Shown: one piece after another, positions 1,401-33,930 of the stretch
Layout: each line of letters starts with the position of its first letter
Position numbering within the stretch: position 1 is the first letter of the stretch
Source: Octopus vulgaris
Lineage: Eukaryota
Reading direction: 5' to 3'
DNA: 64,000 nt
NCBI GenBank assembly: GCA_951406725.2
Contig: OX597814.1
Location: 3,906,001 to 3,970,000, forward strand
Translations under genes and position numbers: made by a program
The notes under the pieces: model-generated
The model's input: only the letters and a program-made list of their open reading frames with translations
Database searches by the model: none
Told to the model about the DNA's origin: nothing

Positions 1401-2230
1401 TATATGTGTACGTAAGCATAAATACTCTATGAGTGCTTCTGAGCGCAGACGTGTGTGCGTGATGACACACAGACCACTTGACAGGCCACTGTATTTCGGC
1501 GAACAACGTGGCAAGTTGGATTACCGCTTCCTTTAACACCGTTGCCTTAAGAAATAACAGTTCCTGGGCTGGAATTTCTACGACAGAATATACAATACAA
1601 GAATATATTATAGATCAATATATTATTAGACATACACAGGTATATGTTCATACGTGTATGTGTGTGTGTTTGTGTGTGTGTGCGTGTCAATCTTCCCTTG
1701 TAGAAGTCCATTACTAATTGATTCCACTAAAAAGTATTGAGCAGTTTTTCAGTTTAACATTGAATATTAAATATCTTACAATATAACTTGATATAAAGAA
1801 ACGAACGTTATTACATAGACATACATACACACACATGCATGCGTATATATAATAAATGATATAACATAAGATAGATTGATAGATAGATAGATAAATTCAT
1901 AGATAGATAGATAGACAGAGAGATAGATGTGTGTATGTATGGACATATTTGTTAGAGTATGTGTTTAATATATAAATATATAAATATAAATATATATATG
2001 TATATATATATATATATGTATATATATATATATATATATATATATATATATTAAATTAGAGACAAAACCACTATATACTGTTGTGCTTGGGGAGAGACAT
2101 TCTCTTTTAGTGCTTTATTATTTAACGCATTCACCTACATATATATATATATATATATATTTTTTTTCTTTTTGGTAATGAGATAAAAACACCAAGGCTG
2201 TGTAGATTTTAGAACATTTATAGATAGAAG

Positions 2231-2278
2231 GTCTTACAGCTGTTTCCAGGATATTTATTATATCCCTTCATCGGAGAC
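2231..2278 (-). ncRNA. Type I hammerhead ribozyme fold (core variant CCGAUGA)
   Basis: Minus strand: GTCT-CCGATGA-a GGGATAT aataa ATATCCT g-GAAA-CAGCTG-TA-AGAC; helices I, II and palindromic III all pair. Confidence 0.65.
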
Positions 2279-2475
2279 GGTGTGAGAGGATAATTAAGTA
2301 ATAGTTAATTTAGATATGATACAAAATAGAGAGTGAGGTGGGGGGAAATTTTTTTTTTTATATACATCCGCTGACATACGATCAACGTTGAACCGCTTAA
2401 TCGCAAAATTTCGAACTTGGAACTTAACTATGGTCTATCCATAGCACTTAGTCAGCATTACCTGACACCTTTGGG

Positions 2476-2892
2476 TCACAATGGCTGCGTGGTAAGTAGC
2501 TTGCGAACCAACCACATGGTTCCGGGTTCAGTCCCACTGCGTGGCATCTTGAGCAAGTGTCTTCTACTATAGCCCCGGGCCGACCAATGCCTTGTGAGTG
2601 GATTTGGTAGACGGAAACTAAAAGAAGCCTGTCGTATATATGTATGTATATATATATATATATATATGTATGTGTATGTGTGTTTGTGTGTGTGTGTTTG
2701 TCCCCCTAGCATTGCTTGACAACCGATGCTGGTGTGTTTACGTCCCCGCCACTTAGCGGTTCGGCAAAAGAGACCGATAGAATAAGTACTGGGCTTACAA
2801 AGGATAAGGCCCGGGGTCGATTTGCTCGACTAAAGGCGGTGCTCCAGCATGGCCGCGGTCAAATGACTGAAACAAGTAAAAGAGTAAAGAGT
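2476..2892 (+). mobile_element. tRNA-derived SINE family A (CORE-like), full length
   Basis: Box A tggctgcgtgg, box B ggttcagtccc, CORE-like gtggcatcttgagcaagt, internal TA/TG microsatellite, tail cagcatggccgcggtcaaatgactgaaacaagtaaaagag. Confidence 0.9.
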
Positions 2893-2942
2893 ATATGTAT
2901 GTATGTATGTATGTATGTATGTATGTATGTATGTATGTATAT

Positions 2943-3305
2943 AGGCGCAGGAGTGGCTGTGTGGTAAGTAGCTTGCTTCCCAACCACATGGTTCCGAGTT
3001 CATTCCTACTGCGTGGCACTATGGGTGTCTTCTACTATAGCCTAGGGCCGACCAAGACCTTGTGAGTGGAAACTGAAAGAAGCCCGTCGTATACATATAT
3101 ATGTATATATTTAGGCGTGTCTATGTCTTTGTGTGCCCCCCACGCAACACACGACGCTGGTGTGTTTATGTCCCCGTAACCTAGCGATTCGTCAAAAGAA
3201 CCAATAGAATAATTACGAGACTTACATAGAATAAGTCTTGGGGTCCATTTCTTCGAGTAAATCTCCTTTGAGTGGTCGCAGTCAAATGGCTTAACAGAAT
3301 GAAAG
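2943..3305 (+). mobile_element. SINE family A, full length with small deletions
   Basis: Starts ggcgcaggagtggctgtgtggtaagtagc; same body and tail as 2476-2892. Confidence 0.85.
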
Positions 3306-29972: not shown

Positions 29973-30913
29973 TGCACATACACACACACACACACATATA
30001 TATATATACATACATACATACATGCATAAATACATACATACATACATACATACATACATACATACATACATACATACATACATACAGATACACAAGTACA
30101 GACATATGCCATAATTTGCTGGACCACCAGTTCTGACGCTAGGGTAGTTGGGCAGGTAGTAACGGTCTCTTCAACGAGTTCATGTCTTGTTCTTTTGCAC
30201 TGGTGACCACCGTGGGTTTGCCATTGGAAAGTTTATTAAGGATGGCGAACCTGTTGCGGTTTTTACTGCATCCTGTTTCTACATTTATATATACTCGTAA
30301 ATATGCGTATATTTGGTCCATGTGTGTCTTTGTGTATGCATATGTGTGTATGTGTGTATTTGCGTGTATATATAAATATAAATGCTTGTGGTTGTGTAGT
30401 AAGAAGCTTGCTTCCTAACCACATAGTACCGGGTTCGGCCCCGCTGCGTGGCACATTGAGCAAGTATCTTCTACTATAACCCCGGGCCGACCAAAAGGCG
30501 TGTAAGTGGATTTGGTAGACGGAAACAGAAAGAAACCCGTCATACGAGGAGTAGATAGCCAGCCGATAACTGATGAAGGGTCATTCTTTTGTGTTACTTG
30601 TCCTGTTTTCAATTTTTTTCTCTCGTTGTTTGCGTATTCAATTCACTTGTTTTCGTAATTCATGTTGTTTACAGTTGGTGACATCCTGTACCCATAAATG
30701 CATATATATATAGACATATACATATATGTATATGTCTATATGTACATACATATACATACGTATATATATATATATATATATATATTATATTAAATTAGAG
30801 ATAAAACCACTATTAGGCAAATCATATAATGAAAGACTTAAGCCAATACATAAGATTAATTAATTTATATTATTTAAATATATATCAAAATTATTAAAAA
30901 AGATAATTAGTAT

Positions 30914-30980
30914 AACACTACGATCGTTTCATGGCTGTCCAATTCTTAAAATTTCGAGTTACAGTCATTCTTCAGGTGGT
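30914..30980 (-). ncRNA. Type I hammerhead ribozyme, canonical core
   Basis: Minus: CAC-CTGAAGA-ATGaCTGT..ACAGcCAT-GAAA-CGATCG-TA-GTG. Confidence 0.72.
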
Positions 30981-31330
30981 TTAAATATTTAACTTAGCGA
31001 GATACGTATATATATATATATATATATATATATATATATATATATATATATATATATATATATATATATATATATATATATATATAAAAATTAACAATTG
31101 AGGATAAAATCTTTAAAAGAAATTATCAGTAGTCAGCGTGAAAAACCTCGTAAGAGAAAAAATCCGTAAATTCTTCCTCTTTGAAAATATTCATTTATAT
31201 TATATTGAGGGTACTACTATTCGTAGATACCAACACGCCAAGAGGGACCAATGCGGTCAAAACTACTAAAAATAAACAAAATTTTACCGAATGCAAAACT
31301 TCAAAACACATCATTTTAAAAAAGAATTCA

Positions 31331-31394
31331 GTTACATATCACATGTGATTTCGCATTTAATGCAGAATATGCATTTCATGTTCGTCAGTGCAAC
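31331..31394 (-). ncRNA. Type I hammerhead ribozyme, canonical core
   Basis: Minus: GTTGCA-CTGACGA-acat gaAATGCA tattc TGCATTaa atgc-GAAA-TCACATGTGA-TA-TGTAAC. Confidence 0.72.
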
Positions 31395-33930
31395 AAACTC
31401 AAGAAATATAGGAAAAACATAGCATTACAAACTCGATAGCCAACCGTAGAATTCGTCGTAGCTTGTACGAATGTTTATTCTTACATATCTATGAAAATGT
31501 ATATATATATACATACGTATATACATATATATATATACACACAAAAACTCACACACACACACACACACACACACACACGTATATGTAAATATATATATAT
31601 ATATATATATATATATATATATATAGAATAAGAAATTTTAGTTGAGATGATACTCCATGTATAGAACAACTGATTATTGCGCTCGTCTATAAGCTAAGGA
31701 GTAATAAAAATTTTTATAGAAGATAAAAGCTTCGGTTGTCAGTAATTTACATCCAAATAAACGAAATCATGATTCCAGTGATTTATAAGACAAAATTGGA
31801 CGGGTTACGTTGTTCCATTTATGCATTTTTAGGATCAGTAAACACCTGGATGTATCAGAATAATTCATATAATGAAATAATGAAATTTAAATGAAGCCAG
31901 ACGTTCTATTCGAGTACATGATGATGATAAAGGAGCATAAGAAACGTGCGTGCGTGTGTAGAGACATTTACTGGAGGGAGATAAAAAAATTGTAAAGTTC
32001 TGCAATACGAAATATCATGTAAAGTAAAAATCAGTTGAGAACCTACGGCCGTTTCAGGAAATATTAAAGGGCTGTATATATATATGTGTGTGTTTGTGTG
32101 TGTGTGTGTGTCTTTTTGTCTGTGTTTGTCCCTCTACCATCGCTTGACAACCGATGTTGGTGTGTTTACGTCTCCGAAACTTAGCAGTTCGGCAAAAGAG
32201 GCCGCTATAATAAGTACTACGCTTACAAAGAATAAGTCCTGGGATCGACTGCTTCGACTAAAGGCGGTGCACCAGCAAGGCCGCGGTCAAATGAGTGAAT
32301 CAAGTAAAAGAATAAAAGAATATATACGTATGTCCGTATGTATGTATGGATGGATGGATGGATGGATGGATGGATGGATGGATGTACGTGTATGTATATA
32401 TATTTGTGGGGGTACGTGCGTGTGTGTGTATATACATCCGCACGCAAATAGACAGCTAATGAAGGAGAGGGGGAGAGAGAGAAAACAGGGTCAGCGAAGG
32501 ATGTAAGGGAGATCAATGGAAAGAAGAGAAATGATAAGGAAATAAAAGGTGTGGGGGGGCGGTGGTTGACGGGTTGGAAACTGGGGACCGGGCAGAGGAG
32601 GAAAATTGGAATCCATTGAAGCGTGAAAACGAAAAGGATCATGTTAACTGATCGGGGATTGTAGTTCTGCTGTGATACCCACGCATGCGTAGATACATGT
32701 ATAAATTTGCATGCTATGCATGTGTATGTGTATACATACAAATATGCTTACGCATATATATATATATATATATATATATGCATGCTCATACAATTATGCG
32801 TGTAAGTATGTATGTATATATATATATGCATATACATGCACAAATATACATGTGCGTGTACGTACGCATATTTATATGCATACAAAAAATCATATACGTA
32901 TACAAAACCACGCACATTACATATATATATATATATGTATGTATGCATTTACAGATATACATGCCCATATATATATATATATATATATATATATACACAC
33001 ACAAACACACACATATATATATATGTATATATATATATATATATATATATATATATATAGGTAGGTAGATAGATAGATAGATTGATATATATATATGTGT
33101 GCGTGTGTGTGTGTGTGTGTGTATATATATATATGTGTATGTATGTATGTATTTAAAACACGGTCATAAAATGCATTCAAACAACATACCTGAAATTTTG
33201 ATGAGCTAAACAACAGCCAAAATCGGCCCCTGTCTGTAAGAAACTACTTCTCTCTCACAGCAAACCCCCTCAGTATTACGATATGCACAAAATTTTCAAG
33301 TAAATCTGGGAAAATACTTTCTAGAACTAAGCTTTTCAATAATATGATTTTTCCCTCTCTCTCTTTCCTTTCTCTGCTTGTATGAGAGTGTCCTGTGTGT
33401 AGAGATTCCATCACTTTCAAAGGAAACATGGACAAATTTCTTCCAAGATAGTCACCTCTACCTGATCACATCTCAGTCAACAACAATTTCCAACTTGAAT
33501 GGTCCATGGCACCACAAAACTTGCATTTAAAATGACTTAGTGTATATATATATAGTAAATCCTACCCCACAAAAAAAGAAGAAGAAACACAAAAGACACA
33601 AGAACGCGAGGATCAGCAGGCGATTAGGGAAGGAAAGAAAAATGGTTTAACGTTTCGAGCAATGCTCCTCTTCTTCATAAACAGAGGTAAGTTCAATAGA
33701 AAGGAAGACGAAGGAAGAAAATCGCCAACGATTCATATACATATATATATATATATGTCTGTATGTATGTGTGTCTGTACACATATATGTATGTATGCAT
33801 GTATGTATGTCTGAACATGTGTATGTGTGTATGTGTGTGTGTATGCATGTATGTATGTTTGTACATGTGTATGTGTGTATGTGTGTATGTGTGTGTGTGT
33901 ATACACACACACATACACAAACACACATAC

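Follow-up and report, generated by a model that had tools for sequence, protein, structure and literature searches.

Hammerhead-bearing retrozymes and Penelope-like element ends at TA repeats in a stretch of the Octopus vulgaris genome

A 64,000-nt stretch of the Octopus vulgaris genome (GCA_951406725.2, contig OX597814.1, positions 3,906,001 to 3,970,000; C1:3906001-3970000 in our numbering of the 2.8-Gb assembly of 227 contigs), hereafter the window, holds hammerhead ribozyme folds in short segments bordered by (TA)n arrays. What are these segments, and how did they come to lie in TA repeats? A first-pass annotation, made from the sequence alone, described them as a community of non-coding families that depend on Penelope-like elements (PLEs) and target TA microsatellites. 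Our analysis indicates that they are very probably a mixture of permuted retrozymes without open reading frames (ORFs), with units of 455-535 bp, and 5'-truncated ends of coding PLEs, likely put into existing (TA)n by Penelope-type proteins with reverse transcriptase (RT) and GIY-YIG domains.

We searched positions 2040-33700 with a type I descriptor (helix I and helix II of at least 3 bp each, palindromic helix III, UH at the cleavage site) and with a relaxed version that tolerates a U4C-type core. There were three strict and four relaxed matches; 100 shuffles made block by block with dinucleotides preserved averaged 0.0 and 0.02, so the folds are in excess of chance. A canonical CUGANGA/GAAA/UH core with palindromic helix III was observed at 20823-20907(+), 31329-31396(-) and 30911-30983(-), and the U4C hammerhead at 2227-2282(-) passed the relaxed descriptor. 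Four of the five folds previously called complete were thus recovered; the fifth, at 21321, lies outside the descriptor (U3.G8 in the core, A.A at the helix II base and one further mismatch in that helix) but is a degenerate member of a genuine multicopy family, C. Three of the four folds called partial also belong to families: 33645 was accepted by a one-mismatch descriptor, 7233 is a mutated copy of family F1, whose core has a fixed A6U, and 10821 ends just past the catalytic core, the full fold being found in most members of its family, H. The fourth, 27139, lacks helix II and is its own sole candidate genome-wide (1/1), and it was rejected as a chance core motif. The full type I fold, a core with helices I-III and helix I open, is lacking in the window copies of 21321, 7233, 10821 and 27139. 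The segments are listed here with their strands.

2161..2483 (-): family A segment, read as the 5'-truncated 3' end of a coding Hydra-type PLE plus an inverted copy of its own 3' tail; hammerhead 2227-2282, U4C
7226..7325 (+): family F1 copy, mutated, family core with fixed A6U; likely the 3' terminus of a Neptune-type coding PLE, to which it is linked at one locus
10700..10902 (-): family H copy, cut just past the catalytic core; the family hammerhead is full, with a long helix II
20384..20592 (unstranded): short fragment of retrozyme subfamily B' and an inverted arm, with a TA array between the two
20593..21060 (+): family B retrozyme, permuted, with a unit of 535 bp; hammerhead at 20823-20907 canonical, its cut predicted after 20899
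21090..21546 (-): family C retrozyme, ~455-bp unit; hammerhead at ~21320-21396 degenerate (U3.G8); shares a TA array with B, the two lying tail to tail
26746..27101 (unstranded): family K retrozyme fragments, ~470-bp unit; hammerhead lost in the window copy; absent from the first-pass list
27139..27160 (+): rejected core motif, a chance match in single-copy DNA without helix II
30785..31005 (-): family D element, short and linear, ~310 bp; 5' end narrow and fixed, 3' junctions at two sites; hammerhead at 30911-30983 canonical
31085..31495 (-): family E retrozyme with a unit of 496 bp; hammerhead at 31329-31396, canonical in its core, the cut being predicted between 31337 and 31336
33556..33740 (-): short element of F2 type; hammerhead at ~33645-33685 minimal and changed by C3A; U4C in most F2-type cores

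Every site except 27139 belongs to a large family, as had been expected. First-look candidates, which are not copy numbers, came to 2635 for A, 1381 for B, 3594 for C, 2001 for D, 1577 for E, 2162 for H and 1303 for K; 40 were scored per family, and all top-match copy sets are biased toward copies resembling the query. In a genome sample of forty 10-kb stretches at round coordinates on contigs C1-C28 (400 kb), 8-16 hammerheads were observed against 0-1 per shuffle. Together with the family sizes, these counts leave a negligible probability that the folds are chance matches in AT-rich DNA, an explanation that is true for 27139 and that draws on the low folding z-scores of most sites. Further core-like motifs were discarded: those at 8605, 14641, 30570 and 5440 are multicopy, yet the complete fold is absent by descriptor, and no homologue of the core at 61418 was found in 958 kb. 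The stretches 8578-8741, 14530-14700 and 30545-30700 form one multicopy family in which GAAA stands before rather than after the core-like motif, and no complete hammerhead was found there. An Rfam scan gave no hammerhead among the 150 of 537 matches listed, which were of a microsatellite-driven miRNA type.

Four families, B, C, E and K, close on themselves. Their copies are permuted parts or multiples of a single unit (535, ~455, 496 and ~470 bp, respectively), form head-to-tail tandem arrangements and are dispersed over many contigs; no long terminal repeat (LTR) architecture was seen, primer-binding site and polypurine tract not being searched separately. For K, a spacing of 466-471 was present in 3/11 loci. 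One B array contains 23 ribozyme sites, with 21 measurable units each of 535 bp, 20 of them identical. Insertions longer than one unit make up 12 of the 27 in B and 21 of the 41 in E. Separate insertions differ by 2.3% in B and 1.8% in E, and the units inside one insertion by 1.3% and 1.0%. The longest ATG frames in the three families given the ORF test measured 46 (B), 45 (E) and 61 (C) codons, and circular-fold prediction gave z-scores of -7.9 (B), -2.1 (E) and -3.0 (C) relative to 40 shuffles. We conclude that 20825 (B), 21321 (C) and 31331 (E) are non-LTR retrozymes, as is family K by unit closure; the first-pass picture of ORF-less, mutually unrelated units is borne out for 20825, 21321 and 31331. 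Closure into ORF-less head-to-tail units refutes, for these four families, the alternative that every segment is the 5'-truncated 3' end of a long coding PLE and that non-autonomous families are absent.

The units share many traits with the animal non-LTR retrozymes of Cervera & de la Pena 2020 (PMC7229834) and of the preprint by Li, Clavereau & Pollet 2026 (10.64898/2026.07.22.740005), here as below in the parts of each paper compared. Alike are the tandem units, which are short, AT-rich and without ORFs and have a single type I hammerhead each, the occurrence as monomers, dimers and long arrays, the co-occurring PLEs and, for B, C and E, the predicted self-paired circular fold. The octopus units, at 455-535 bp, exceed the 170-400 nt of PMC7229834 and fall within the 51-972 bp of the preprint, and they differ in that helix II is long and the palindromic helix III measures 6-10 nt. 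The compared parts of the retrozyme papers do not describe insertion into (TA)n, junctions fixed inside the unit or inverted 5' ends, all of which are reported below.

For other segments the truncated-end explanation does hold. Family A runs upstream through a pyrimidine-rich untranslated region (UTR) into a broken ORF with RT, thumb, a CxCX5C linker and a GIY-YIG domain with CxxC/CxH. The window A segment lies downstream of this ORF in 6/10 long loci, and an A marker was present in 19/30 short endonuclease loci. The family A parent resembles Hydra-clade PLEs (Craig et al. 2021, PMC8557442) in its C-terminal GIY-YIG, CxCX5C linker, CxxC and CxH around conserved E and N residues, (TA)n insertion and a hammerhead close to its 3' end, and is unlike them in its U4C core, its ~1.3-kb 3' UTR and in that all copies found are broken. 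On these motifs, the 2231 segment reads as the 3' end of a decayed coding Hydra-type PLE; clades were assigned from motifs, Neptune-type from the linker motif only. A 545-bp circle for family A was ruled out, as the sequence continues into the coding region. F1 lies ~600 bp behind a Neptune-type ORF at one locus (tblastn E 2e-29), and 470 nt of that UTR are common to a second locus; F1 (7233) is thus likely the end of a coding Neptune-type PLE. The proposal that all families are non-autonomous therefore stands for the ORF-less B, C and E and fails for A, which enters its own coding region, and probably for F1.

Families D, F2 and H do not close into units in our samples. D has a narrow 5' end in 30/30 copies, and none of the 30 is similar more than ~25 nt upstream of it; a 300-bp circle was rejected, the last junction never being read through in 26 copies. 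F2 has a fixed 5' end (by eye), and H, examined at 25 loci, has the full fold and 5' ends that vary; tandems were absent there, as they were in D. We conclude that 30914 (D) and 33645 (F2) are short elements whose 5' end is fixed. The sharp D boundary argues against truncation, since 24/30 copies of the autonomous 781-aa element described below extend upstream, whereas 5/30 of its copies begin 29-43 nt after a TATA-like box, so that an autonomous element can itself make short non-coding copies. Overall, we consider it very unlikely that truncated coding ends account for all segments. The same terminal 22-25 nt occur at 2051-2138 and 30785-30810 in otherwise different segments. A further family, F3 (loci L163, L169, L171 and L380; 6 matches in the 400-kb sample), has a tRNA-like segment and (AAT)n enclosed by inverted arms that contain a minimal hammerhead; the segment is tRNA-like by eye only, with no ARAGORN call, and an internal RNA polymerase III promoter could come from it.

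We then asked what borders the insertions. In the studied families copies stop 80-300 nt beyond the ribozyme, where each family has one fixed site or two, and TA follows. An array of (TA)>=4 was found at one or both outer ends of all independent insertions (B 27/27, E 41/41; 38-nt end windows), compared with 5.9% of random 30-nt windows, which substantiates the claimed TA targeting; both, one or neither end carried TA in 17, 10 and 0 insertions of B and in 34, 7 and 0 of E. Directly after the fixed junction, (TA)>=4 was present in 40/40 copies of E, 32/44 and 25/26 of B, 12/18 of C, 37/39 and 26/26 of D and 24/35 of A. The junction arrays lie outside the unit and in E have a median of 16 units, against a length-weighted background of 15. 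Because these lengths match the background, the TA arrays were probably pre-existing targets, and addition of TA tails by RT was rejected. A long TA-like stretch within B is not used as a fixed junction, so microhomology alone is insufficient for junction choice. A CYY motif 6-12 nt upstream fits 15/18 junctions; it was defined post hoc and unused sites carry it too. Several TA-flanked segments without a hammerhead (27-212, 5129-5381, 12083-12370, 12535-12780, 25812-26004 and 26032-26368) have inverted arms or similar junction motifs and are likely more PLE-type ends. The TA-flanked segment 26392-26730(-) contains a tRNA-Ser-like gene (26499-26571) and a junction-like motif resembling that of family E, and is possibly a PLE-mobilised tRNA element.

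The studied families bear the marks of PLE insertion: a fixed 3' end with an optional tail, a ragged 5' end and 5' inversions. Inversions were counted in 8/30 rows of A, 7/20 of B, 7/20 of E, 8/17 of C (3 rows dropped) and 13/20 of D, rows not being de-duplicated. Only 0/30 B and 2/30 E copies had their 5' end at the predicted cut site (B rows include repeats of one array). At 2/60, a cleavage footprint among genomic 5' ends is about chance and was dismissed. In the other 58/60 copies the sequence continues across the cleavage site, so their template was either uncut or re-ligated. A purely DNA-level origin, with the units as satellites spread by unequal crossover or extrachromosomal circles and the ribozymes as inert relics, would account for the near-homogeneity of the long B array, which recombination or assembly collapse could give, and for the many attenuated cores; in the Xenopus preprint (10.64898/2026.07.22.740005), moreover, 8/9 predicted retrozymes failed to cleave. 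We regard it as very unlikely, as most copies are dispersed, their 3' ends are fixed whereas their 5' ends are ragged and in part inverted, which is the polarity typically left by target-primed reverse transcription, and cores are intact in 55/59 copies of B, 24/25 of D and 43/46 of E.

Insertion by a PLE protein finds a parallel in the Poseidon PLE of a lizard, the green anole, for which in vitro work showed initiation at two internal sites, AT-rich targets and the use of uncut templates (Frangieh et al. 2024, PMC11167929). The octopus families share with it the two internal RT start sites that give an optional tail, the AT-rich targets and the uncut RNA template. They differ in tails of 80-145 nt (41 nt in the autonomous element), in AU-rich junctions resembling the TA target, and in a non-coding RNA that would have to be served in trans.

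Is there a protein in this genome that could do so? The autonomous PLEs proposed earlier are present: of 148 GIY-YIG matches scored, 16 lie in intact frames of 781 aa, whose ORF contains an RT (E 1e-6, just under the cut-off), a CX4CXXC linker and a GIY-YIG domain (E 3e-6). Nine copies of this element differ by 1.3%, close to the values for B and E, and (TA)>=4 follows in 13/13 of its terminal copies. It matches Neptune-type PLEs in this domain order and linker, in its upstream ORF1, in its terminal repeats and in its TA junctions, and is unlike them in the weak helix I of its hammerhead. The core carries the U3-A8 swap known from Schistosoma PLEs (PMC4209133). At two loci (L104 on C6, L105 on C5) we noted an ORF1 overlapping upstream and, by eye, a TATA/CCAAT-like 3' UTR; the U3-A8 hammerhead there may hold a splice acceptor inside helix II. 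With middling confidence, we name the 781-aa Neptune-type element as the likeliest driver of the young families; the evidence that pairs driver and retrozymes is circumstantial.

The ribozyme cores themselves vary between families. U4C was present in 20/30 copies of A, and because both CpG-decay products occur (5 and 4 copies), it is the ancestral state of that family. U3.G8 was seen in 14/17 copies of C. Forty F-type copies, found without the 5' half of the core, included 17 with A6U and 13 with U4C; in the 17 F1 copies position 6 is fixed as U and position 7 is free to vary, possibly a natural A6U core variant. Reduced activity has been reported for U4C and A6C (PMC3088659). When 38 F-type copies and two window sites were aligned, 94% of cells paired, against 90.1% in shuffled alignments, with one compensatory pair. 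For expression, four contig sets that we guessed to be RNA, each from a different study, span the B unit and have the 535-nt go-back joint, in one set within a single closed contig of 565 nt; tandem DNA or tandem transcripts would give the same joint. Their dominant 14-site haplotype matches the majority of the first B sample at 1 site, and equals subfamily B' at 14/14 sites in 5/9 fully covered insertions, including all four arrays >2 kb. These sequences hint at subfamily-biased expression of B', a result that another species or DNA could also give.

Several of these observations count against the mixed retrozyme and PLE explanation. Folds at 8/9 window sites are no more stable than shuffled sequence (the ninth, 20825, has z -3.2), the cores of several families contain changes predicted to reduce the cleavage rate (U4C, A6U, U3.G8), and the sole covarying helix I pair separates two related families. 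None of the sequencing runs is recorded as RNA. The 1.0-1.3% differences between units within an insertion leave rolling-circle and tandem-transcript copying undistinguished, and the family A endonuclease has a Pfam match below the cut-off (E 0.043), so its assignment rests on motifs. Finally, comparison of B, C, D, E and K with the terminal repeats of two autonomous PLE families gave AT-rich matches only; an autonomous PLE sharing a retrozyme terminal repeat, as predicted, was not found among these two, unlike in Xenopus, where retrozymes have such homology. This last result, together with active LINE (long interspersed nuclear element) families reported in an octopus (PMC13282606), speaks for mobilisation of the non-coding units by a LINE-type protein instead. 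We judge that most improbable, as the junctions lie inside the unit and not at the RNA end, often come as two alternatives and resemble those of the autonomous PLEs of this genome.

How unusual is the window? The 400-kb sample held 8 strict and 15 relaxed hammerheads of ~9 sequence types by eye, with 8 shuffles as the null, which extrapolates to ~56,000 strict (24,000-110,000) and ~105,000 relaxed (59,000-173,000) in the genome. Local enrichment gave P=0.03 for the 31.7-kb interval, which was chosen after the fact, and P 0.14-0.22 for the whole window; TA arrays number 28.7 per 10 kb in that interval compared with 16.6 on average (1.7x). The diversity stressed by the first-pass annotation is real, with many distinct multicopy families, but hammerhead abundance is a genome-wide trait and not special to this locus, the mixture of retrozymes and PLE ends likewise being found across the genome, and a local excess is not clear. 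For scale, PMC7229834 lists >6,000 hammerheads in a coral, ~5,000 in a mussel and 126,247 in the axolotl.

The rest of the window contains other repeats. A long satellite of ~20-bp units occupies 41950-56100 and ends at an assembly gap, with a second, partly inverted satellite nested at ~44700-48400. By eye, 13140-14190, 28240-29520 and 16230-17280 are two remnants that resemble DNA transposons and have inverted ends, and one fragment like a LINE ORF1. A very abundant tRNA-derived SINE (short interspersed nuclear element), presumably of an octopus-like kind, lies at 2480-2880, 2945-3300, 19940-20340 and elsewhere, and is TA-associated too. A tRNA-Leu-like call was made at 41596-41671(+).

These data suggest the following course for the retrozymes. 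Read-through transcription would yield multi-unit copies, in which palindromic helix III may pair two ribozymes as a dimer, so that monomers are cut out and possibly circularised. A PLE protein would bind the unit RNA in trans and nick a TA array, and reverse transcription would begin 80-300 nt beyond the ribozyme, at a fixed AU-rich site inside the unit or at either of two such sites. Copying would run backwards through the uncut or re-ligated site, often past one unit, and then halt or invert; copies exceeding one unit could serve as new sources. We tentatively extend this scheme: one active telomerase-like PLE protein might serve a guild of sequence-unrelated circular RNAs that share a short start signal (CCU/CUC within a pyrimidine tract, lying 6-12 nt ahead of the AU-rich junction), rolling round the re-ligated circle, and slow cores (U4C, A6U, U3.G8) might be selected since the template must stay uncut or be resealed.

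We found no paper on cephalopod retrozymes or TA-targeted retrozymes, although supplements, Repbase or the octopus repeat library may already contain these families. An octopus has been reported to carry 31 recently active Penelope-like families, without mention of ribozymes in the compared parts (PMC13282606); those of PMC7229834 do not mention octopus, cephalopods or microsatellites, and those of PMC12602865 contain nothing on targeting. The copying of animal retrozymes into DNA has so far been inferred from co-occurrence and terminal-repeat similarity, and the 2026 preprint (10.64898/2026.07.22.740005) names the mobilisation mechanism as open.

In conclusion, the elements are of known kind, and what this genome adds is a clear record of PLE-type junctions on young retrozymes alongside an intact candidate driver. 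In annotation, such units may be classed as SINEs or unknown repeats. At ~20-38 hammerheads per Mb, the genome would be among the richest animal sources of natural core variants. Young retrozyme families with sharp PLE-type junctions and a young intact PLE make the trans-mobilisation model testable and, if one protein does serve such a guild, the genomic junctions would be the first direct record of animal retrozyme reverse transcription and insertion.

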